Positions 3,544 to 59,878 of a DNA stretch of 64,000 nt are shown in pieces (position 1 is the stretch's first letter; the number at the start of each line of letters is the position of its first letter). Both the position numbers and the translations under genes were made by a program. Source of the DNA: a phage. The stretch lies in the sequence record QB031382.1; one strand, 5' to 3'. A model generated the notes under the pieces. The model was given only the letters and a program-made list of their open reading frames with translations, was not told the origin of the DNA and made no database searches.

Positions 3544-5615
3544 TGGCAACAGCTGTTTTTAAACCTTACCGTGATTACTCTACAATGGCTGCACAGTTTC
3601 ATTACCGAACAGTTCAGGATACTGCTGTTCCTGGGAGGGATTATAATCATGTTGAGGGCGATGTAACTATCCCGGTTGGGGCAACCAGTATCGAGATCCC
3701 TGTAGAAATTGTTGACAAATTGCCAAACAGGTTGCCAAGAAGCTTCTTTATGGAGTTTTCATCAAACTCACAAGGGGTTATGATTGGAACACAAAGAGCG
3801 AAATGTACAATAGTTTCAGATGAGAATCTTGACAGAATATCTTGGGATACCGTTGAGGAGAGAATGTTTCACCCAAGATATTGGGTTACAACCACACAGC
3901 AGACTGAAAGCACCTGTATTGTTGCGGATAATAACTGCTGTATTAACCGTTTAGTGTCAAGAACATATGGAGGCATGGCTGGGTGCATTTGGGAAACAGT
4001 TGACAAGTATGACCATTTCGGCATTGGATTTGATGATCACTACGAGATGAGAAACACCAAGCTTTGGTTCAGAATGTCAATAACCAATGCCAGCAACTTC
4101 TCCACCCCTGAAAAGATGATTATGACTGTAGACCTTGTTGATGGCACAATCATCTATGTTCCTTTAGCTCAATATGCTGTCAGCATCTCAGAGGATAAGA
4201 ATGTTGCAGAAATTCATATTGATTTCGAGGACTGCGTCGGGATGGACCAGAACAACAACATGATGGGTGTTGATCCTCGGCAGGTGAGAAGGATTTTAAT
4301 ACCACTTATGCCTAAAGATTGGGTAAGTAATAGCACAGACCCAAGAACGGAAAATGTAGAGTGCGAGTTGCGTCTAGATCTGCTTCAGCCGGACACAGGC
4401 TGGAAAATGATGCAACTTAACAATATCCAGGTGAAAGAGCACGACGTCGGGATCTGCACAGCATATGACGATATGTGGAACGTATCTCCTTTAAGGGTGT
4501 TGAGCAATATCAAGCGTCTAGGCTATACCGGAACCATAAACCATTATGTTGGTATGAGCCATTATTATGATTACACATGGTCCGGAACTCAATGGTCTAT
4601 AAACAGAACAGGAGCTCTAAACGCTGCAGCTTACAAATGGCACGATGATTTTATGTACAATGCCAAACGACATGACTTTGATGTTATGCAGTCTGTAAGC
4701 TTTGAGCTTTACAGTGATGCCTGTCCGTTGGAATGGACCCAAAGGGATTGGAACGATAACTATGCTAAAACAGGCTATACACCTTGTAGTTACCTCCTGT
4801 CTCCAACCATTGAAGAGGGTATGAATTTCCTTACTGCAGTATTTAAGAATTTTGCATCAGCCGCTATGAGGAACAGCCTGCCAGTGATCATGCAGATTGG
4901 TGAACCGTGGTGGTGGTTCAATACCGATACTCGTAAGCCTTGTATTTATGACTACCCTACAAAACAGGCGTTTTATGATGAAACTGGTGAATATGCCCTA
5001 GACATTGGGACTATTGACGATCCTAAAACTGGTGGTGTTTATGACAAGTATGTAGCATTTTGTCGTGGTAAGCTTGGCGCTCGTATTGCAGCTATTTCAA
5101 AGGCAATAAAAGCACACGCTGCATCGGCTCAGATGACAGCCTTGCTGTTTTTCCCAACCATTATGGAAACCGAGCTTACGCAAAAACTGAACCTTGCCGA
5201 CCAATATAAAAAGGAAGCAGGCGCTCTTGATTTCTTCTGCACTGAGTGCTACGATTGGGTGATGCAGGGTGGTATTGAAAAGGCAAAAGAGTCTGTAAAC
5301 ATACCTATCGTTAAGTTAGGTTGGCAACCGTCTGAAATACAATACCTTGCAGGGTTCGTTCCTAGTAAAGAGCTTGCTCCAGTATATGGCTACGACCCAA
5401 CCAGGAATTACCAAGAATTTTTATGGAGATGTATTTGCGGAAACATGGCAACCATAGAGTATAGATACCCTGAGGTAAAACAGTATGTGTGGGCATACCC
5501 GCAAGTAATGTCTGACAGCATCACTGTTACCGCCAGAGATTCTACCGTGCTTCATATGGGGCAGGTTGCTCTGAAAGGGTATGTAGAAGATGTTGTCCCG
5601 CCAGACTTCTCATAA
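3543..5615 (+). CDS. hypothetical virion structural protein (690 aa)
   Basis: Long ORF, start overlaps upstream stop (TAATG), in tail module; no motif recognised. Confidence 0.4.
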   Translation: MATAVFKPYRDYSTMAAQFHYRTVQDTAVPGRDYNHVEGDVTIPVGATSIEIPVEIVDKLPNRLPRSFFMEFSSNSQGVMIGTQRAKCTIVSDENLDRISWDTVEERMFHPRYWVTTTQQTESTCIVADNNCCINRLVSRTYGGMAGCIWETVDKYDHFGIGFDDHYEMRNTKLWFRMSITNASNFSTPEKMIMTVDLVDGTIIYVPLAQYAVSISEDKNVAEIHIDFEDCVGMDQNNNMMGVDPRQVRRILIPLMPKDWVSNSTDPRTENVECELRLDLLQPDTGWKMMQLNNIQVKEHDVGICTAYDDMWNVSPLRVLSNIKRLGYTGTINHYVGMSHYYDYTWSGTQWSINRTGALNAAAYKWHDDFMYNAKRHDFDVMQSVSFELYSDACPLEWTQRDWNDNYAKTGYTPCSYLLSPTIEEGMNFLTAVFKNFASAAMRNSLPVIMQIGEPWWWFNTDTRKPCIYDYPTKQAFYDETGEYALDIGTIDDPKTGGVYDKYVAFCRGKLGARIAAISKAIKAHAASAQMTALLFFPTIMETELTQKLNLADQYKKEAGALDFFCTECYDWVMQGGIEKAKESVNIPIVKLGWQPSEIQYLAGFVPSKELAPVYGYDPTRNYQEFLWRCICGNMATIEYRYPEVKQYVWAYPQVMSDSITVTARDSTVLHMGQVALKGYVEDVVPPDFS

Positions 5616-5627
5616 TCAGGAGATAAA

Positions 5628-6668
5628 ATGTCAAAACCTAGTTTTCCATTAGAGATTTGGGCAGAGGAGGATCAGGTTCTGCCTAACACCCACAGACAGA
5701 ACAGGCTACGCCCGATTGATGATTTGTGGAGAAAAGGTTGGGATCTTGGTCAAAAGCCATCCTGTGAAGAACTTAACTATATTTTCAATATGCTCGGGAC
5801 TTGGGCAAAATACATTGCTGACGAGCAGATCCCCGCTCAAGAAGGCCGCTATCTGGTACGTGATAATAACTTGAGTGATCTTTTGAACATCCCTGTTGCC
5901 CGTAGAAACCTTGGAATTATTACTAAGGAAGAGGCAGACGCCAGGTATGTAAAAGTTACAGGTGATACAATGACAGGCCCATTGGGTTTGCAACGTATCA
6001 ACTTTAAAGCTGCCGAGACAGATAAGGCTTGGATAGAGACAACTATTGGCCCAGATAAGACAACTCTTGACTTTGGGTTAAGTGATAATATTGGAGCGTT
6101 CGATGATGGTGGCACATCTACAGTGGATGCGTTCCGTTGGAGATTCCAGCCAACTCAGCCGGACATTAACCCAGAGTTCACTTTAATGTACCTGAACGCA
6201 ATCACGGCTAATCGTGCGTTGTTGAAAGTGGTGGGCAATGTTGAAGTTGTTGATAACATGCGGTGTAATAACCTCACCATTAGTAGCACAGCAACATTCA
6301 CCAACTGCAATGTAGCCAGTCAGTTGACAGCTGGGTCAGTATATGTCAATGGCGGTGCAAGTTGTGATAGTATGGTTGTAAGAAGCCAGCATTGTGTTGT
6401 CGGTAACAGAAATGTGGTGCGCTCTGTGAATGGAGTGACGGCTAACGGCAACGGCGATGTAACGATCACCATCCTACAGACAGGTGTACAGGATATCAGA
6501 ATCGGTGCAAGACTTGTTGATGGTGTTTCTGAATCTCCAGTTCGCAACGGCTACGTTGTCACAGGTTGGCATTTTGGTGATAAAAAAGAGATGCGTGGTT
6601 CAACCTACTGGGCAGGGCCTTTACAAAAACTTGTAAATGGTCAATGGATCACTGTTAATTATGCGTAG
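5628..6668 (+). CDS. tail fibre protein, paralog 1
   Basis: 346 aa; N-terminus and C-terminal KLVNGQWITVNYA shared with ORF 7684-8727; followed by Tfa chaperone gene. Confidence 0.55.
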   Translation: MSKPSFPLEIWAEEDQVLPNTHRQNRLRPIDDLWRKGWDLGQKPSCEELNYIFNMLGTWAKYIADEQIPAQEGRYLVRDNNLSDLLNIPVARRNLGIITKEEADARYVKVTGDTMTGPLGLQRINFKAAETDKAWIETTIGPDKTTLDFGLSDNIGAFDDGGTSTVDAFRWRFQPTQPDINPEFTLMYLNAITANRALLKVVGNVEVVDNMRCNNLTISSTATFTNCNVASQLTAGSVYVNGGASCDSMVVRSQHCVVGNRNVVRSVNGVTANGNGDVTITILQTGVQDIRIGARLVDGVSESPVRNGYVVTGWHFGDKKEMRGSTYWAGPLQKLVNGQWITVNYA

Positions 6669-50983: not shown

Positions 50984-51382
50984 ATGAAAACCACTACCTT
51001 TAATTTTGACAATGCGGACTTTTCTTTTTCTGATGTCAAGAACTGCCGCCGTGATCGTGGATTTTATAAGGCTTATAATCTGGTGGGCCTGGACGATGAC
51101 AATAATTTGCACGAAGTAGCTGAGATCCGGTATTATGCCGCCGCCAGTGGGAACACTCACTACTGCGTTTTTTGGATACACGACAACAAGAACAATAAGT
51201 ACGGCTATACTGGCGGCAAGGCGAGCGGTCACGGTTATGATAAAGCTAACGCAGCACTTGAGAGCGCATTAAATGCTATGGGGATCACTGCCGACGGCTG
51301 GATCTACGAAGAAGAGTTTTTGTCGGCACTTGCTGACCGCCTGGGATATAAAAAGCACATTGTAACATGTGCCCACGAATAA
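50984..51382 (+). CDS. small hypothetical protein
   Basis: 132 aa, RBS AAGAGGA. Confidence 0.5.
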   Translation: MKTTTFNFDNADFSFSDVKNCRRDRGFYKAYNLVGLDDDNNLHEVAEIRYYAAASGNTHYCVFWIHDNKNNKYGYTGGKASGHGYDKANAALESALNAMGITADGWIYEEEFLSALADRLGYKKHIVTCAHE

Positions 51383-51393
51383 AAAAAAAATTA

Positions 51394-51421
51394 TTGACAC
51401 GCTGCAAAATTCAAGTAAACT
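51394..51421 (+). promoter_or_regulatory. sigma70-like promoter with 5' leader hairpin
   Basis: -35 TTGACA, 16-bp spacer, -10 TAAACT; leader hairpin GGCGGGAA-TGT-TTCCCGCC. Confidence 0.45.
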
Positions 51422-51469
51422 AGACACAAAAGGCGGGAATGTTTCCCGCCAACACAAAGGAAAAAGATC

Positions 51470-51874
51470 ATGAATAAGAACGTACGCCGCATCATGAACG
51501 AGTTGGCAAACGATGAAAAAATTATTGACATGCATTTGATCAACATTTGCCGCCGTTGTGTAACATATAACAACCGCGCCGCAAAAGCGCGTGAGATGAA
51601 CGCAAAAGGCACCTTAAAGCCATTCCAGGTGGTGGTAAAGGCCATTAAAAATGTAACTAATACGGCAAACCAGGTACAGGGGAACACCAACGAGAGTACC
51701 AATATTGATCCGGCTTACATCATGAAACGGATCCGGACCTGTAAGAACAAAGAGCAAGTGTATAATGTTATAGACTGGTTGGATTCTATGGGCGACGTGG
51801 TGTACAATAGATTCTCGGCAGCTATTGAGATCCAGCTTGACAGGTTGGACGGTAAAGTACTGAAAACTTATTAA
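51470..51874 (+). CDS. small hypothetical protein
   Basis: 134 aa. Confidence 0.5.
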   Translation: MNKNVRRIMNELANDEKIIDMHLINICRRCVTYNNRAAKAREMNAKGTLKPFQVVVKAIKNVTNTANQVQGNTNESTNIDPAYIMKRIRTCKNKEQVYNVIDWLDSMGDVVYNRFSAAIEIQLDRLDGKVLKTY

Positions 51875-51875
51875 G

Positions 51876-51921
51876 TTTATTTTTAGATGGCCTTGACTCC
51901 AGGGCCATCAATAAAGTAAAC
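51876..51921 (+). promoter_or_regulatory. conserved palindromic intergenic element, copy 1
   Basis: TTTATTTTTAGATGGCCTTGACTCCAGGGCCATCAATAAAGTAAAC; 7-bp stem GATGGCC/GGCCATC with TTGAC in loop; T-rich upstream, A-rich downstream. Confidence 0.4.
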
Positions 51922-51954
51922 TAGTCTCAACTAAGCGAAAAAGGGGGCTTTAAG

Positions 51955-52074
51955 ATGAGCACTACACGCCAATACACAAAGGTAACTATTATCGTTTGCG
52001 TTGTCGGTTACATCCTGGCGCAAATGTTAATGAGTAGCGCCAACAGTTTTGCAAAATTTTTCTTAAATTTTTAA
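51955..52074 (+). CDS. small hydrophobic peptide (39 aa, below ORF-track cutoff)
   Basis: ATG after RBS AAAGGGGG; sequence MSTTRQYTKVTIIVCVVGYILAQMLMSSANSFAKFFLNF. Confidence 0.3.
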   Translation: MSTTRQYTKVTIIVCVVGYILAQMLMSSANSFAKFFLNF

Positions 52075-52102
52075 TTGACAAGCTAACCCAAATCAGTATA
52101 CT
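52075..52102 (+). promoter_or_regulatory. sigma70-like promoter with leader hairpin
   Basis: -35 TTGACA, 16-bp spacer, -10 TATACT; hairpin GGGAA-AAC-TTCCC. Confidence 0.5.
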
Positions 52103-52153
52103 TAAACACGTAAACGGGAAAACTTCCCAGAACACACAAAAGGAGAAAACACC

Positions 52154-52495
52154 ATGACTACTATGACCGCCGCAGAAAAAGCTATGCAGATCGCCGCGCT
52201 GAAAAAACAGATCGCAGACCTTGAGAACAAGATCGATAACTTTGAAATCGACGAGGACAAGTACGACGAAAACTATAATGAATGGCTAGACGAGATCCAC
52301 GGCGAAATTATGATCGGTAACATTTCTTTTCTTCCGTCGCGTATCCTCAAGGAGTTAGATCCTATCGCTTACCGCTGCGGATTTAGCGACTACATCGACA
52401 GCCTGGGCATTGAGGACGACGAAGACTATCAAGAATTGCAGACAGAGTTGGAAGAAATGAAAGAGGAGCTTTCAAAGCTGGAAGAAAACGAGTAA
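52154..52495 (+). CDS. small acidic hypothetical protein
   Basis: 113 aa, RBS AAGGAGA. Confidence 0.5.
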   Translation: MTTMTAAEKAMQIAALKKQIADLENKIDNFEIDEDKYDENYNEWLDEIHGEIMIGNISFLPSRILKELDPIAYRCGFSDYIDSLGIEDDEDYQELQTELEEMKEELSKLEENE

Positions 52496-52497
52496 AA

Positions 52498-52543
52498 TTT
52501 ATTTTTAGATGGCCTTGACCCCAGGGCCATCAATAAAGTAAAC
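52498..52543 (+). promoter_or_regulatory. conserved palindromic intergenic element, copy 2
   Basis: TTTATTTTTAGATGGCCTTGACCCCAGGGCCATCAATAAAGTAAAC. Confidence 0.4.
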
Positions 52544-52581
52544 TTTACACTGTTACACTGAACTAATGAGGAGTTAAAACT

Positions 52582-52827
52582 ATGGCAGCACTAATCACAA
52601 AATATTATGCGCCCACCAACACCAAAAGCGCCCGTATCATGGTAAAAGGTTTCGGACGTAAAAAGGTCTACACCTGGGACTATTCCCTAGATATGGAAGA
52701 CAATTATACCAACGTAATGACTGATTTTATTAATGATCTGAATAAACAGATCCTAACCGACTACAAAGTGACCGATATTGTTTACATAGGTGAAGGCGGG
52801 ATCTGTTTTGTAGGCATTGTGAAATAG
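52582..52827 (+). CDS. small hypothetical protein
   Basis: 81 aa, RBS GAGGAG. Confidence 0.45.
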   Translation: MAALITKYYAPTNTKSARIMVKGFGRKKVYTWDYSLDMEDNYTNVMTDFINDLNKQILTDYKVTDIVYIGEGGICFVGIVK

Positions 52828-52875
52828 TTATTTTTTCGGTGGTCCTGGTTGCAGGGGCCATCTATAAAGATAATT
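52828..52875 (+). promoter_or_regulatory. conserved palindromic intergenic element, variant copy
   Basis: TTTTTTCGGTGGTCCTGGTTGCAGGGGCCATCTATAAAGATAAT; shares GGGCCATC(A/T)ATAAAG core. Confidence 0.3.
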
Positions 52876-52903
52876 TATTAACACCATGAAAGGAGAAAGT
52901 AAC

Positions 52904-53257
52904 ATGATCAGCGGGGCCAGTTTTATTATCGGCGCTATTGCTACGGCTTTAATTGTAAACAAGATCCAGGATAAAAAGGAAAGAGGAAGTACCGCCCTTG
53001 CAGAATATCCATTTTGGACATTCAACGATAACGAAGATTATATTATAAAGTATAAAAATAAAGAAGGCGACCAAGTAACACCGCGACCGATCCCGGCTTA
53101 CAAAATGCAGGAAACACTATACCGCCTTGAGGCGGGCGGCGCAAAAATTGTTGACTTTTGGGGATACGACCACACAGATCAGGAAGTTATAAAGCGCCGT
53201 ATCCGGGCTATTCAGGCCAATATTGAGGTTAGCAAGAGGGGAATATATGAAAATTAA
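52904..53257 (+). CDS. small membrane-anchored hypothetical protein
   Basis: ATG after RBS AAAGGAGAAAG; N-terminal hydrophobic helix ISGASFIIGAIATALIV. Confidence 0.45.
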   Translation: MISGASFIIGAIATALIVNKIQDKKERGSTALAEYPFWTFNDNEDYIIKYKNKEGDQVTPRPIPAYKMQETLYRLEAGGAKIVDFWGYDHTDQEVIKRRIRAIQANIEVSKRGIYEN

Positions 53258-53444
53258 TTTCGAGAAAATTGTAAAGCGCCCTCATGATTCCGAAGAGTTG
53301 CCAGAACGCCGCCAGCGCAACAATAAGCTGAATAAGCCAAAAAGGTTTGGGAAGATCTGGCGTAATCATTATGATCGTAAATTGCCCGGCCTACTTTTGG
53401 AACGTGAACGACAGGCAGAACGCTACCGCCATAAAGACAAATAA
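53247..53444 (+). CDS. small basic hypothetical protein
   Basis: ATG after RBS AAGAGGGG; 65 aa. Confidence 0.35.
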   Translation: MKINFEKIVKRPHDSEELPERRQRNNKLNKPKRFGKIWRNHYDRKLPGLLLERERQAERYRHKDK

Positions 53445-53452
53445 CAACCAAC

Positions 53453-53480
53453 GCCCCGCCATTGTGCGGGGCTTTTTATT
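53453..53480 (+). terminator. rho-independent terminator
   Basis: Stem GCCCCGC ... GCGGGGC followed by TTTTTATTTC. Confidence 0.6.
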
Positions 53481-53601
53481 TCTATCCTACGAATAGCGCC
53501 CCTGGTTGGCCCTGTAAGCGCCAAAAAGGCCCCCACCTATGCAATCGCCCCTTTAACCTGAAAACATCGCCCAGGGCCGTCCTATGGCGTTAAAAATATC
53601 A

Positions 53602-53629
53602 TTGACATCGTCAACAGGTTAGCTATACT
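53602..53629 (+). promoter_or_regulatory. sigma70-like promoter
   Basis: -35 TTGACA, 16-bp spacer, -10 TATACT. Confidence 0.5.
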
Positions 53630-53661
53630 AACCACATCAAAGAGAGAAAGGAGTAAACGCC

Positions 53662-53922
53662 ATGCGTAAATTAAAAAATTTTGATAAAGTTGATGTTATC
53701 CTGAATAATTTTTACTACTGCAACAATAAAGCTATCTGGTGGCGGGATAGTTCCACCGATAAAGTCAAAGCGCGCTTTCTTCAAGGGCACTGGCAAGGCC
53801 GCCCAGTGATTAAAATCATGGGGCAATTGGTAGCGTTTAAAAATTGCCGCCGCGTTGATGACGTTGAGGAGATTTTAAACATTTTGCGCCACAATAATTT
53901 AAAAAATAGTGTTGACAAGTAG
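53662..53922 (+). CDS. small hypothetical protein
   Basis: 86 aa, RBS AAAGGAG. Confidence 0.45.
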   Translation: MRKLKNFDKVDVILNNFYYCNNKAIWWRDSSTDKVKARFLQGHWQGRPVIKIMGQLVAFKNCRRVDDVEEILNILRHNNLKNSVDK

Positions 53923-53939
53923 ATCTCAATAAGTATAAT
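53912..53939 (+). promoter_or_regulatory. sigma70 consensus promoter with leader hairpin
   Basis: -35 TTGACA inside end of upstream ORF, 16-bp spacer, -10 TATAAT; hairpin GGCGGGAA-AAC-TTCCCGCC. Confidence 0.55.
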
Positions 53940-53996
53940 TAAACACACAGGCGGGAAAACTTCCCGCCACTAACAAAGAAAACAGGAGAAAATATC

Positions 53997-54620
53997 ATGA
54001 CCACCGTTAACATTACCACAGGTTACAATTTATCTTTCGACGTGCTGACCGACGAACAAAAAGAAAAAGCCATTGAAATGGTCCGCGAAAGAGAAGAACG
54101 TAGCGGGGACGATTTTTTCGCAGAAAATGTAATTGAATACTATAAAGAACAAGTTTTTCCAGAGTACGGCCTTGAGGATACCGAAGTACATTGGTCCGGC
54201 TTTTGGTGTCAAGGCGATGGCGCATCGATCAGTGCTGAAAATGTAGACTTAGAAAAATTCTTGCGTAAAGTCAAGGCCCTGACCAAGTTCAGATCAATTC
54301 GTCACTTGTTCGGCACAATGCACGATGGCGAACTATCCGCCAGTGTTGAACGCGACAAGTACAGCCATTACAGCCATGAAAACACTATAAGCGGGTACAT
54401 TGATACCACTTGGATAGATCTGACCGCCAAACAAGAAAACAAAGTGGAAGACCTGGAAGAATTGATCACCGAGACGGTACGGGAGCTATCCCGCAAGGTT
54501 TACGTAGACCTTGAGGAGGCCTATCTAGAACAGTTCACCGCAGAAAACCTGATCGGCCTTATTCAGGCCAATGATTGGCGGTTTGATGTCGATGAATATG
54601 GTGAGATGACTTTTTCATAA
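53997..54620 (+). CDS. hypothetical acidic protein
   Basis: 207 aa, RBS CAGGAGAAAA. Confidence 0.5.
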   Translation: MTTVNITTGYNLSFDVLTDEQKEKAIEMVREREERSGDDFFAENVIEYYKEQVFPEYGLEDTEVHWSGFWCQGDGASISAENVDLEKFLRKVKALTKFRSIRHLFGTMHDGELSASVERDKYSHYSHENTISGYIDTTWIDLTAKQENKVEDLEELITETVRELSRKVYVDLEEAYLEQFTAENLIGLIQANDWRFDVDEYGEMTFS

Positions 54621-54628
54621 ATAAAGTG

Positions 54629-54656
54629 TTGCAATAACCTAAAAACCTGCTATATT
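54629..54656 (+). promoter_or_regulatory. sigma70-like promoter with leader hairpin
   Basis: -35 TTGCAA, 16-bp spacer, -10 TATATT; hairpin GGGCAA-GACAT-TTGCCC. Confidence 0.45.
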
Positions 54657-54713
54657 AAAACTCAAGGGGGGCAAGACATTTGCCCGCCAACACAAAACAA
54701 AGAGGATAACATC

Positions 54714-55094
54714 ATGAAAAATACTACTAAGGCTATTGACACCGTTATGTTTAACCTGGTTACACTCCGTGAAGATATGAAAGATCTTCCGCGTGAAACA
54801 GTGTGCGACCATATCGAAAACTATCGCAAACTAATCAAAGAGTTGCCATTAAAACGAGATCAGTACGCGGCTAACGCTATGCTAAACGCCATGATCAAAA
54901 AGATGATCCAGTGTGATCTAACCCTGGCCTATGATTATGCAGGCGGTCGTTTTGCAGTATACAATCAGCCCGTGCCTGGTATGAGCACCACCGAAGAATT
55001 GCACGCGCTCAATCTAAAACAGGACGTGTGGGATAGTATGCCTCGCGTGGTGGTATGGGTAGAAAGCGGGAAGATTTACGGCGATAATTTTTAA
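54714..55094 (+). CDS. small hypothetical protein
   Basis: 126 aa, RBS AAGAGGA. Confidence 0.5.
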   Translation: MKNTTKAIDTVMFNLVTLREDMKDLPRETVCDHIENYRKLIKELPLKRDQYAANAMLNAMIKKMIQCDLTLAYDYAGGRFAVYNQPVPGMSTTEELHALNLKQDVWDSMPRVVVWVESGKIYGDNF

Positions 55095-55103
55095 TCAGGT
55101 AGC

Positions 55104-55131
55104 AGGCGGCATAATTGCCGCCTTATTGTTG
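55104..55131 (+). terminator. rho-independent terminator
   Basis: Stem AGGCGGCA-TAAT-TGCCGCCT then TATTGTTG. Confidence 0.45.
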
Positions 55132-55158
55132 ATCAGAACTGCAAAAGGGGTACATAGA

Positions 55159-55530
55159 ATGGAATTTATTATTTTGGCCGTATTGGTTGCCTTATTTAAC
55201 GCCTGGATCGCTGGCAAGATGGGAAGATCCGCCTTTTTATGGTTTATTATATCTATTTTCCTGGGGGTGGTTGCAACTATTGTACTGGTTATCCTTGCAA
55301 TTGTTGACAAGGGGAATAATAGAAAGGGTAAAGTATTTTCAGACCTGTACGACGCTCAAACGTTTGTCAACGCCTATTACAGCGATCTTCCAGTCTCCCT
55401 ACGTTGCAGCCTTGCACAACAGGTTTTTGATGAGGCTAAAACCAGAGATCACGCCCATGAGATTTGTTTAACTGAGGCGGATCGCTTATTTGAGAGGAAT
55501 AGAAAATATGTGGGCCAGCCGTTTAAATAA
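55159..55530 (+). CDS. small membrane protein
   Basis: ATG after RBS AAAGGGG; two hydrophobic helices. Confidence 0.45.
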   Translation: MEFIILAVLVALFNAWIAGKMGRSAFLWFIISIFLGVVATIVLVILAIVDKGNNRKGKVFSDLYDAQTFVNAYYSDLPVSLRCSLAQQVFDEAKTRDHAHEICLTEADRLFERNRKYVGQPFK

Positions 55531-55729
55531 TACCACGTTAATTAATCCATTTAGTGAAGATTTGAGGCCAGCCGCCTGGCGGAATGGATTCAATAACGAA
55601 AAATTTACTTTTAGGCCTGATCTTGAGGAATTTTATAACAATGGATCGAACAACGACAGAAATAATTTTTCTCGTAATGTGCGTGGCGATAATACTCCTG
55701 GGGGCCATTGTAAACCACGTCACTGCTAA
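55508..55729 (+). CDS. small hypothetical protein
   Basis: ATG after RBS GAGGAA, overlaps upstream gene end; Asn-rich. Confidence 0.3.
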   Translation: MWASRLNNTTLINPFSEDLRPAAWRNGFNNEKFTFRPDLEEFYNNGSNNDRNNFSRNVRGDNTPGGHCKPRHC

Positions 55730-55749
55730 CAGGAGGAAAGGGGGAGACG

Positions 55750-55869
55750 ATGACAACCAAGGATAAGCCCAGCACCGACAAGGCGCGCCGCGTTATGGTA
55801 TGGCTTGAGATTATCGCCCTTGAAATATTGTTAGGCGTAGGGATGTATTTTATCGCCGTACGTACCTGA
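55750..55869 (+). CDS. small hydrophobic peptide (39 aa, below ORF-track cutoff)
   Basis: ATG after strong RBS AGGAGGAAAGGGGGAG; C-terminal hydrophobic helix; terminator follows. Confidence 0.3.
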   Translation: MTTKDKPSTDKARRVMVWLEIIALEILLGVGMYFIAVRT

Positions 55870-55873
55870 TAAC

Positions 55874-55905
55874 GGCCCCCGATCCCTGGGGGCCTGACTT
55901 TTTTC
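55874..55905 (+). terminator. rho-independent terminator
   Basis: Stem GGCCCCC-GATCCCT-GGGGGCC then TGACTTTTTTC. Confidence 0.6.
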
Positions 55906-55933
55906 AAAAAAAAAAATTTTTTCTTCCGGGGTG

Positions 55934-55961
55934 TTGCAATCCGGTCCGGAATATGGATAAT
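55934..55961 (+). promoter_or_regulatory. sigma70-like promoter with leader hairpin
   Basis: -35 TTGCAA, 16-bp spacer, -10 GATAAT; hairpin GGGGAG-ACA-CTCCCC. Confidence 0.45.
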
Positions 55962-56020
55962 AACAATCAACGGGGAGACACTCCCCACCACACAGACAAA
56001 GTTCCAAAAGGAGAAACAAA

Positions 56021-56221
56021 ATGAGCAACAATATCCGCGTTATTAACTTCAAAAAAGAAGAAAAAATAGCTGTGCTGGTTGATGGTCAAGAAATATTCAA
56101 GGGGTATTACGAAGATCATCAGGCGGCGATCAGTATTACCCGCGTAATTGGTTACCATAATTTTTACCCTCAAGGCGCTGAGGCAGCAGTAAAACGAATT
56201 AAGGAGATTGTAGGCCTGTAA
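56021..56221 (+). CDS. small hypothetical protein
   Basis: 66 aa, RBS AAGGAGAAA. Confidence 0.5.
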   Translation: MSNNIRVINFKKEEKIAVLVDGQEIFKGYYEDHQAAISITRVIGYHNFYPQGAEAAVKRIKEIVGL

Positions 56222-56223
56222 AA

Positions 56224-56270
56224 TTTATTTTTAGATGGCCTTGACCCCAGGGCCATCAAATAAAGTAAAT
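56224..56270 (+). promoter_or_regulatory. conserved palindromic intergenic element, copy 3
   Basis: TTTATTTTTAGATGGCCTTGACCCCAGGGCCATCAAATAAAGTAAAT. Confidence 0.4.
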
Positions 56271-56313
56271 TTAAAACCTGTTAAAATAATCAGTGCAAAA
56301 AGGAGAAATGATC

Positions 56314-56613
56314 ATGTTTATACCCGCCAATGATCTTTATTTCTTTGATGGTCAGATCGTAGACGGCGTGGAAGTTGAGATCGCTGGATGTAAAGGCGGC
56401 CAGGTAATGATCTTCCGCAATAGTGCCTTTAACGATCATTTTATTACAATGACTGTGGAAGTTAAAAAGCTGGATGATAAGAAAACACTCATTGACTATT
56501 CCGTGAAAGATCATCCAGACTACCACATGATCTATGGTGATTTGTGCATTGTTGACCGTGACAAGGTGGGCGGCATTGTGATCGCTATTGTGAACGATGT
56601 TTTCTCTGAATAA
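56314..56613 (+). CDS. small hypothetical protein
   Basis: ATG after RBS AAAGGAGAAA. Confidence 0.45.
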   Translation: MFIPANDLYFFDGQIVDGVEVEIAGCKGGQVMIFRNSAFNDHFITMTVEVKKLDDKKTLIDYSVKDHPDYHMIYGDLCIVDRDKVGGIVIAIVNDVFSE

Positions 56614-56672
56614 TTCCGGCAAATGATGCAAAATAAGGCCCATGGCAGGGCCTGCAGCGATATAATCACACA

Positions 56673-56704
56673 AAGGCTATGCAGTTGCATGGCCTTTTTA
56701 TTTT
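56673..56704 (+). terminator. rho-independent terminator
   Basis: Imperfect stem GGCTATGCA...TGCATGGCC then TTTTTATTTT. Confidence 0.45.
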
Positions 56705-56751
56705 AGCGCTACAGCGGCCCCCAAGGCGTTTAAAAAATTTTTAAAAAGTAC

Positions 56752-56779
56752 TTGCATCAAGTCCGACAATATGGATAAT
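56752..56779 (+). promoter_or_regulatory. sigma70-like promoter
   Basis: -35 TTGCAT, 16-bp spacer, -10 GATAAT; G/C hairpin in leader. Confidence 0.4.
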
Positions 56780-56838
56780 AGGACTTATCAGGGGGGGGCG
56801 GCCCCCAATCATTAACCGGATAGATGGGAGTTAAAATC

Positions 56839-57123
56839 ATGGCTATTGTTACCGTGGGCGATGTAGTAGAAATGGAAGCAAAATACTTAAAAGCGGGTAT
56901 GCATATCCTACGCAACGATCTTGAACTAGTCCTGACAATGGTCGACTATAATCCCGGTCAGGATTATCCAAGCATCGACTACTTTTTCCAGTATGTTGAC
57001 GAAGAATTAAAAGAAGATGACGCTTATCGTGGTGAATTTTGCAATTTCTTTTGCCCTGATGAGGTTGTAAAAGTTATCTATCAACCTGGCGTACCTTTCC
57101 CGTTGCACGCCATCAATAAATAA
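56839..57123 (+). CDS. small hypothetical protein
   Basis: Second ATG chosen (RBS GGGAG); 94 aa. Confidence 0.45.
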   Translation: MAIVTVGDVVEMEAKYLKAGMHILRNDLELVLTMVDYNPGQDYPSIDYFFQYVDEELKEDDAYRGEFCNFFCPDEVVKVIYQPGVPFPLHAINK

Positions 57124-59583: not shown

Positions 59584-59760
59584 AAGGCAACTATGCAAAC
59601 GAATGTCATGGCGCGACGGAGTCGCGACATAATATAAAAGCAGTAACCATCACCCCCGTGATAGTTTATCTGCAAACTATTGATCAGATCATAGTTGCCT
59701 TAGATTTAGTTAATCATGACATAATAAGCAAGGCAACTATAGATCTGATAATAGTTGCCC
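59584..59760. repeat. cluster of four AGGCAACTAT motifs in alternating orientation
   Basis: AAGGCAACTAT at 59584(+), 59691(-), 59730(+), 59751(-); last pair forms 10-bp inverted repeat with 10-bp spacer; 19-bp direct repeat ATGCAAACGAATGTCATGG at 59595 and 59852. Confidence 0.55.
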
Positions 59761-59850: not shown

Positions 59851-59878
59851 ATGCAAACGAATGTCATGGCTTATCATC

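Follow-up and report, generated by a model that had tools for sequence, protein, structure and literature searches.

Between small open reading frames (ORFs) at positions 51,876 to 56,270 of a 64,000-nt stretch of phage DNA (sequence record QB031382.1; the whole stretch is called the window below), a palindromic element of about 50 bp is repeated. The question raised by this locus is what the element does. A preliminary description offered three candidates: a second class of promoter for a phage-modified RNA polymerase, an operator for a phage regulator, and an RNA processing site. The answer that we favor, with a probability of roughly 0.6, is that the element is a composite of rV5-like phages resembling the PeSL cassettes of T4-like phages, in which an RNA hairpin, an optional promoter, and a recombination site would be combined.

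The source of the window is, judging by its matches, a Vequintavirus, i.e., an rV5/FV3-like myovirus. Over bases 51000-57000, identity is 97% with Escherichia phage VB-EcoM-WM and 96% with phage FV3. The region matches 124 phage records, essentially all of which belong to the genus Vequintavirus (rV5-like myoviruses).

Copies of the Element and Their Distribution

The preliminary description reported three near-identical copies and one variant, and this holds. The 24-nt core GATGGCCTTGACCCCAGGGCCATC is found on the + strand at 51886, 52508, and 56234 with no more than one mismatch, while matches to it occur in none of 100 dinucleotide-preserving shuffles. Compared with a 46-mer form of the element, the copy at 51876 has one mismatch and the copy at 52498 has none; the copy at 56224 carries a 1-nt insertion (A) after the stem. 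A covariance model was built from the repeat family and used to search the window and the full genome of the closest relative (139,468 bp). It returned exactly four copies in the window, all on the + strand, and exactly four in the relative, all inside 4.4 kb, which supplies the genome-wide count that had been suggested at the outset. The four copies in the window are the following:

51874..51924, + strand: copy 1; covariance model score 76.4 bits; predicted fold −24.3 kcal/mol, z −5.6; begins inside the TAA stop codon of ORF 51470-51874; next start codon at 51955

52496..52546, + strand: copy 2 (reference copy); 74.3 bits; predicted fold −20.3 kcal/mol, z −4.5; immediately follows the TAA stop codon of ORF 52154-52495; next start codon at 52582

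52826..52877, + strand: copy 4 (variant); 64 bits; predicted fold −16.7 kcal/mol over 63 nt, z −2.1; starts in the TAG stop codon of ORF 52582-52827; next start codon at 52904

56222..56273, + strand: copy 3; 72.2 bits; predicted fold −21.5 kcal/mol, z −5.4; after the TAA stop codon of ORF 56021-56221; next start codon at 56308

The start of each copy falls at or inside the stop codon of the ORF upstream of it, and 28-38 nt separate the end of the copy from the next start codon. The placement directly after stop codons was described correctly. A repeat search revealed the element as the top direct-repeat family in a 13-kb region. A BLAST search with a 57-nt query found the near-identical form in 121 records, usually with three copies per genome.

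Searches farther afield brought little. A pattern scan of IMG/VR with GGGCCATCWATAAAG yielded 120 stretches, nearly all of them chance matches; the sole clear relative was an already-known contig, and no new variants appeared. When IMG/VR was searched with a protein as anchor, one close and seven distant contigs came up; the element was found in none of the seven. A sliding RNAfold scan for hairpins of at least 17 bp returned 166 clusters in the window and was too unspecific for use. No publication describing the repeat in rV5-like phages was found in a search limited to one literature library, and the element is absent from the promoter/terminator table of the rV5 genome paper, which gives a stringent promoter list.

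The RNA Hairpin

When folded as + strand RNA, the whole element turns out to be one bipartite hairpin with 20 bp over two stems. The lower stem consists of about 10 A/U base pairs (AGTTTATTTT / AAAGTAAACT, with one U·G pair), in which the upstream T-tract pairs with the downstream A-rich tract. An internal loop of 2 × 3 nt separates it from the G/C upper stem, which is 10 bp long (GATGGCCTTG / CAGGGCCATC, also with one U·G pair) and is closed by the tetraloop ACNN. The 7-bp GC stem of the preliminary description is therefore too short by three pairs and leaves out the second 10-bp stem. The statement that a T-tract before the stem and an A-rich tract after it do not make an intrinsic terminator was right, given that there is no U-tract; the pairing of the two tracts with each other was missed, as was the recombination between copies described below. 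The parts of the hairpin and of the putative promoter are laid out in the reference copy as follows:

52496..52505, + strand: 5′ arm of the lower stem, AATTTATTTT; pairs with 52535-52544; doubles as the A/T-rich tract that lies upstream of the putative −35

52508..52531, + strand: upper stem-loop, GATGGCCTTG / ACCC / CAGGGCCATC; stem pairs invariant or with G·U-only changes

52515..52520, + strand: putative −35, TTGACC, reaching across the upper stem's top and the loop

52535..52544, + strand: 3′ arm of the lower stem, AAAGTAAACT; holds the putative −10, TAAACT, at 52539-52544

Copies 1-3 have predicted folding energies of −20.3 to −24.3 kcal/mol with z from −4.5 to −5.6; folding is poorer on the reverse strand (z −1.8 and −0.8). 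In the case of copy 4, the 51-nt element gives −18.2 kcal/mol on the + strand and −6.6 kcal/mol on the − strand; the bipartite hairpin is kept by means of G·U pairs and compensatory changes. In copy 3 of the window, the extra A widens the internal loop to 2 × 4 nt. A diverged copy 1 in the IMG/VR contig (L003) has the same shape (−22.4 kcal/mol, z −5.7), in spite of a 5-nt loop, a wider internal loop, and the replacement of U·G by U-A.

Pairing was analyzed in 28 distinct copies from 11 genomes, namely the window and ten relatives (EdH4, Gotham, the IMG/VR contig, rV5, KKE7M, A147, MaxTheCat, ime, phiWec189, and C7). A standard pair on the named structure is formed in 98.4% of the 559 pair cells. 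None of 500 shuffles matched the observed pairing percentage or covariation score, and when the 3′ partner was slid by 1-3 columns as a control, only 41-56% of the cells paired. Two-sided changes are found in four pairs of the lower stem (26 cells): G-C in copy 1 corresponds to A-U in copy 3, A-U and U-A are swapped in copy 4, U-A alternates with C-G among copy-4 orthologues, and the pair at columns 5-47 occurs in U-A, A-U, G·U, and G-C variants. Four pairs of the upper stem vary solely by transitions that keep G·U pairing.

The strand matters. Pairing amounts to 98.4% on the + strand and 86.4% on the reverse strand, and the minimum free energy is better on the + strand by 3-15 kcal/mol in every copy. 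Pairing that holds on the + strand only argues for a structure in mRNA-sense RNA rather than for a symmetric site in double-stranded DNA. The hairpin is better conserved than the promoter features discussed below and is the feature that selection preserves. Of the three initial candidates, the RNA processing site fares best: a strand-specific, covarying, intercistronic hairpin fits a processing or stability signal, and a signal at the RNA level is plausible, while the fit to the rules known for RNase III is partial.

A canonical terminator is unlikely. After the stem, the + strand continues with AATAAAG and the − strand with TAAAAATAAA; neither strand has a U-tract, and the terminator scan does not call the element, though it finds terminator-like sites with U-tracts nearby. 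The phage evidently has ordinary terminators where they are needed.

Promoter-like Hexamers

The same DNA carries hexamers resembling those of sigma70 promoters. The promoter scan reports TTGACT-18-TAAACT at 51893-51922 in copy 1 and TTGACC-18-TAAACT at 52515 in copy 2, each with 9 of 12 matches. With an 18-nt spacer, copies 1-3 can be written as TTGACN-18-TAAACT (copies 1 and 2) or with TAAATT as the −10 (copy 3 of most phages; in the window, the extra A of copy 3 makes a spacer of 19 nt before TAAATT, while relatives have the 18-nt form). In all copies, 8 nt separate TTGAC from the A/T-rich tract TTTATTTTTA upstream of it. TTGAC itself is invariant across the aligned copies 1-3, the sixth base of the −35 being C, T, A, or G; the consensus A is found in EdH4 and in the IMG/VR contig.

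These observations change what was said of the element at first. TTGAC was placed in the loop; it is present in copies 1-3, where it straddles the top of the stem and the loop, and is absent from copy 4. The reading GTAAAC at the −10 position came from a 17-nt spacer, and a spacer of 18 nt gives TAAACT. Nor is a distinction between the element and sigma70 promoters supported: in addition to the hexamers, copies 2 and 3 of phage Gotham are annotated as promoters by PhagePromoter, and AATAAAGTAAACT is also the spacer and −10 of a non-palindromic site, TTGCAA-16-TAAACT, in Justusliebigvirus UAB_1, which is followed by the usual hairpin of the 5′ untranslated region (5′UTR) and a Shine-Dalgarno sequence. 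The sequence AAGTAAACTAG, similar to AATAAAGTAAACT, is found in the rV5 promoter P194. Promoter activity of copies 1-3 is plausible as a prediction, to which we would give about even odds, and its features are less conserved than the hairpin.

Recombination at the Repeat

The third aspect of the element is its behavior as a dispersed direct repeat. Between copies 1 and 2 lies a gene cassette:

51925..52495, + strand: cassette with a 39-aa ORF (51955-52074), a canonical promoter with a 5′UTR hairpin (52075-52140), and a 113-aa ORF (52154-52495)

In phages ime and phiWec189, one chimeric element joins the left flank of copy 1 to the right flank of copy 2, and the 620-bp cassette between the two copies is missing. 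The interior of the cassette is present in 116 records, in 113 of them at a coverage of at least 80%.

Phage KKE7M belongs to another subfamily than the Vequintavirinae (Stephanstirmvirinae, genus Justusliebigvirus). Its match to the window, with 94.7% identity, covers exactly 52074-52542: it begins at the −35 of the promoter at 52075 and stops where copy 2 ends. The corresponding slot, at 5581-6048 in KKE7M (L012) and 1063-1278 in UAB_1 (L014), holds a different gene in UAB_1, a relative of KKE7M. The left joint of the transfer lies in the shared promoter TTGACAAG...AAAATC, one of the promoter-plus-hairpin modules described at the end of this paper, and the right joint lies inside AATAAAGTAAA, which is common to the element and the resident promoter-like site. 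A gene cassette has been exchanged between subfamilies, from Vequintavirinae to Stephanstirmvirinae, with both joints in promoter sequences.

Loop variants are common to the paralogues of one genome and differ between genomes. Copies 2 and 3 have CCC in the window, TTC in rV5, and ACC in the IMG/VR contig; copies 1 and 2 of EdH4 have ACC, and copies 1 and 3 of C7 have GCC. Such sharing within a genome is a signature of gene conversion. Mismatch density changes stepwise near copy 1 in rV5 and near copy 4 in EdH4 and ime, and other breakpoints are located elsewhere. Taken together, the genome comparisons show that the copies behave as substrates of homologous recombination.

The ORF upstream of copy 1 (51470-51873) occurs in two allelic classes, with at least 95% identity in 41 records and 80-90% in 66. 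The segments adjoining this ORF split differently, which indicates mosaicism around copy 1.

Position within Predicted Operons

The copies are flanked by predicted sites of transcription start and stop:

51394..51421, + strand: canonical-looking promoter, TTGACA-16-TAAACT (promoter scan)

53453..53472, + strand: canonical terminator-like site, a GC hairpin followed by TTTTTATTT (terminator scan)

55934..55961, + strand: promoter-like site, TTGCAA-16-GATAAT, with ORF 56021-56221 and copy 3 downstream of it

56672..56697, + strand: terminator-like site downstream of copy 3 and ORF 56308-56613

Upstream of copies 1, 2, and 4 is the promoter-like site at 51394; the first terminator-like site of the canonical type that follows them on the + strand is the one at 53453. 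Copy 3 is bracketed by the sites at 55934 and 56672. The orthologue of the promoter at 51394 is P194 in the table of the rV5 paper. Transcripts starting at 51394 would pass through copies 1, 2, and 4, and a further promoter-like site lies at 52075, between copies 1 and 2. Since the copies are located between promoter-like and terminator-like sites, the hairpins would be intercistronic elements inside operons, if these predictions hold.

Proposed Mechanism

The mRNA-sense transcript of the element can fold into the 20-bp bipartite hairpin (10-bp lower stem, 2 × 3 internal loop, 10-bp upper stem, and tetraloop). In the mechanism that we propose, this hairpin would lie between cistrons of polycistronic early mRNAs, beginning at the stop codon of the upstream cistron. 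It most likely acts post-transcriptionally, either as a processing site of the RNase III type or as a barrier to 3′-exonucleases, and may in this way set the relative stability of the messages of the flanking small ORFs. In copies 1-3, the same DNA may also be, with less certainty, an internal sigma70 promoter of moderate strength for the downstream ORF. Its parts would be the A/T tract upstream, TTGACN at the top of the stem, an 18-bp spacer, and TAAACT or TAAATT within the lower stem's 3′ arm, whereas copy 4 would be a hairpin only. Finally, as a dispersed direct repeat of about 50 bp, the element serves, as the genome comparisons show, as a substrate for homologous recombination, by which the flanked cassettes of ORFans are deleted, converted, and exchanged.

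Several points weigh against this proposal. As a promoter, the element is suboptimal: the 18-bp spacer is G/C-rich, the −10 matches the consensus at 4 of 6 positions, and the spacing varies (19 in copy 3 of the window and 20 in copy 1 of the IMG/VR contig). An alignment read by eye shows no −35-like hexamer in copy 4 at any permitted spacing. The sequences compared are closely related, and the compensatory changes come from few independent events, mostly between copy 4 and copies 1-3 and between copy 1 and copy 3; despite this kinship, the pattern points to a structure of mRNA-sense RNA. The pairs of the hairpin agree in part with the optimal boxes for RNase III. There is also decay: copy 1 of Gotham lacks 5 nt of the 3′ arm, and the lower 3′ arm of copy 3 of C7 is lost or replaced, so that individual copies are dispensable. 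The number of copies, four in 4.4 kb, is small in comparison with the many PeSLs of T4-like phages. A literature search for transcriptomic studies of Vequintavirus phages found none.

Alternative Explanations

The alternative that survives best, which we consider unlikely, is an RNase III processing signal of the type known from the T7 early region. Host RNase III would cut at or near the internal loop and separate the cistrons, leaving the upstream message with the upper stem as a hairpin that protects its 3′ end. Signals for E. coli RNase III span about two helical turns, and an internal loop can restrict cleavage to one strand, leaving such a hairpin (PMC1540722). The element offers a 20-bp helix of about two turns, broken by an internal loop and placed directly after stop codons in apparent operons. 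If the cut is set where the internal loop meets the upper stem, the proximal four pairs (GC, UA, AU, GC) agree with the optimal proximal box at three of four positions, and the invariant U·G falls in the distal box in a comparison by eye with the published rules. However, only one of the two pairs of the distal box is matched, and the upper stem has 10 bp, whereas good reactivity takes at least 11 bp from the cleavage site to the tetraloop. Moreover, the pair beside the presumed scissile bond is G-C, a described catalytic antideterminant: Pertzev and Nicholson (2006, PMC1540722) found that G-C in this position suppresses cleavage without suppressing binding. Rfam, searched at permissive thresholds over 47-60 kb, gave no match for the region. 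A passive barrier to 3′-exonucleases or a weak attenuator would fit the same anatomy as an RNase III site.

A non-canonical attenuator or terminator, as has been proposed for the stem-loops of PeSLs, is a doubtful explanation. It would damp read-through into the next ORF, and a stable hairpin right after stop codons would suit this role; PeSL stem-loops were shown to cut downstream lacZ expression as strongly as rrnB T1 (PMC2839356). Against it, the stem is followed by AAUAAAG with no U-tract, and the element goes uncalled in a scan that finds canonical sites nearby. The promoter-coupled terminators described in a 2026 preprint have a T-tract between the stem and the −10, and there is none here.

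Similarly doubtful is the view that the hairpin is the specific site of a dedicated RNA-binding protein or endoribonuclease, encoded by the phage or the host. If this is true, the factor would time the decay or processing of a few early ORFan messages, and the near-invariant 3′ arm, CAGGGCCATC-W-ATAAAG, together with the U·G pair, would reflect sequence-specific recognition. The element would then be a portable module of promoter and processing site that carries its own regulation between phage subfamilies.

A plain sigma70 early promoter, with a palindrome that is incidental or merely tunes the promoter DNA, seems improbable. It would account for the TTGACN-18-TAAACT arrangement with 9 of 12 matches and an A/T-rich tract upstream, for the PhagePromoter annotation of two copies, and for the −10 segment common to non-palindromic promoter-like sites. 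It does not explain why copy 4 retains the full hairpin through six pairing-compatible pair differences and yet has no −35, or why copy 1 of the IMG/VR contig keeps its hairpin with a 20-bp spacer. Compensatory and G·U-only changes are not expected of a promoter, and about 45 of 51 positions are conserved, far above what a promoter needs.

The operator suggested at the outset would be a palindromic site for a dimeric phage regulator that shuts off these early genes. The long dyad symmetry overlaps a −35, and the 3′ arm is strongly conserved even in copy 4, as such a site would have it. The differences in the upper stem are nevertheless all one-sided transitions that keep G·U on the + strand and break the symmetry of the half-sites, and on the reverse strand, with its lower pairing, the invariant U·G becomes a C·A mismatch. 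In addition, no DNA-binding protein is encoded beside the copies, and the sites are only four, all in one 4.4-kb stretch, which makes an operator quite improbable.

The other initial suggestion, a second class of promoter served by a phage-modified RNA polymerase, or, in a wider version considered here, by a phage sigma factor, can draw on conservation well past the sigma70 hexamers, but is hardly credible with four copies in a 139-kb genome, all in one segment of small ORFs where recurrence at many genes would be expected, interleaved with strong consensus sigma70-like promoters of the same orientation, and with a variant (copy 4) that differs in the supposed recognition loop and lacks TTGAC.

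Some further candidates were considered and rejected from the sequence. A function of the reverse strand was dismissed in view of the missing U-tract on either strand, the weaker reverse folds, and the lack of a convincing reverse promoter by eye. Hairpin promoters of the N4 type, nut/put antitermination sites, and the T4 late-promoter motif (TATAAATA) do not agree with the sizes of stem and loop, the motif matches, or the early-type small ORFs around.

Relation to Known Elements

The closest parallel is PeSL, a repeated cassette made of an A/T-rich tract, sigma70-like hexamers, and a stem-loop, which ends at the ribosome-binding site of the next gene (PMC2839356, PMC4122927). The PeSLs of T4-like phages cluster among ORFans, and recombination between them leads to deletion, insertion, and replacement (PMC2839356, PMC4122927). 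Both systems are short repeated intergenic cassettes in an early region rich in ORFans. In both, an A/T-rich tract and a stable stem-loop are followed by a Shine-Dalgarno sequence and start codon, and the copies recombine so that flanked ORFans are deleted, inserted, or replaced; sigma70-like −35 and −10 hexamers belong to PeSL and, as putative ones, to copies 1-3 of the present element. The present element differs in belonging to the Vequintavirinae, which are unrelated to T4-like phages. PeSL stem-loops are mostly placed between −35 and −10 or across the −10, and polyG/polyC tracts are frequent in them, whereas here the stem encloses the −35, and a second stem made of the A/T tract and the −10 region completes a bipartite 20-bp helix. 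Furthermore, the predicted promoter of the present element is below consensus strength, dispensable, and missing in one copy. We regard the element, by analogy, as a counterpart of PeSL and not as a member of the family.

The early RNase III signals of T7 (e.g., R1.1) are similar in being intercistronic two-turn hairpins with an upper stem, a lower stem, and an internal loop, placed, in the present case by prediction, right behind a stop codon on early polycistronic mRNA. The present element is unrelated to them in sequence, its upper stem has 10 bp instead of 11 or more, and a G-C pair stands beside the presumed cleavage site.

Extragenic palindromes of the REP type and other intercistronic stabilizers are repeated palindromes after stop codons, and as RNA, their hairpins can block 3′-exonucleases. 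The present element shares the palindrome repeated after stop codons and a hairpin that could act in the same manner, and differs in being phage-borne, in its four copies and other sequence, and in its promoter-like hexamers.

Fletcher et al. (bioRxiv 2026, doi 10.64898/2026.08.19.745784) described promoter-coupled terminators, in which −35 hexamers are embedded in terminator stem-loops. The likeness is that the DNA of an RNA stem-loop also supplies the −35 for the next transcription unit. In their elements, a T-tract leads from the stem to the −10, whereas here this segment is A-rich and paired with the upstream T-tract.

Phages of the rV5 type are in wide use against E. coli in therapy and biocontrol, and the regulation of their early genes is known from sequence predictions only. 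The element suggests that cassettes combining a promoter, a stem-loop, and a recombination site are not peculiar to T4-like phages. It may serve as a concrete example in which an RNA structure backed by covariation, a precise deletion of a cassette between two copies, and the move of a cassette between subfamilies come together, and as a compact test case for one stretch of DNA serving as promoter, RNA structure, and recombination site at the same time. The practical gain would be modest: about 120 genomes could be annotated better, and the mapping of transcript ends would have a defined target.

Other Features of the Region

According to the annotated closest relative, the window contains tail-fiber genes, then a replication block (rIIA/B, helicase, primase, and DNA polymerase), and then a run of small ORFs. 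From about 41 kb on, this is a long + strand run of small ORFs with no known function, and the repeat is located in it. The proteins flanking the copies are products of small ORFs with no informative family matches. The one exception is ORF 53247-53444 (65 aa), which matches Pfam PF08200 (bacteriophage T7 gene 1.1 protein) with an E-value of 2.6e-11, above the curated cut-off.

The region is rich in strong consensus-like promoters of the form TTGACA-16/17-TAnAnT. Only a few bases after each of the consensus-like sigma70 promoters here comes a G/C hairpin of the 5′UTR of the type GGCGGGAAnnTTCCCGCC, and leaders of the type CAACACAAAGGA come next. Such promoter-plus-hairpin modules are found at 52075-52140 and 53912-53977, two examples with 74% identity over 66 nt, and also at 51394-51450, 54629-54690, and 55934-55995. 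They form a second family of repeated regulatory cassettes in the region.

Seventeen records labeled ‘Campylobacter phage’ (MG0656xx) match the region; those listed are about 93% identical, and the inspected ones are marked UNVERIFIED. The Campylobacter host label of these records looks doubtful and perhaps reflects contamination or co-isolation.

Two repeats of other kinds were observed in the window. The segment 49772-50078 comprises 307 nt with no ORFs; in it, a direct repeat of about 47 nt (GTACTCGATCTGTTTTTCGTTT...GGATTTT) occurs three times, at spacings of 65 and 74 nt, in an arrangement that looks iteron-like. A perfect 20-nt direct repeat, ATGCAAACGAATGTCATGGC, occurs at 59593-59612 and 59851-59870, 258 nt apart, with few convincing ORFs around it.

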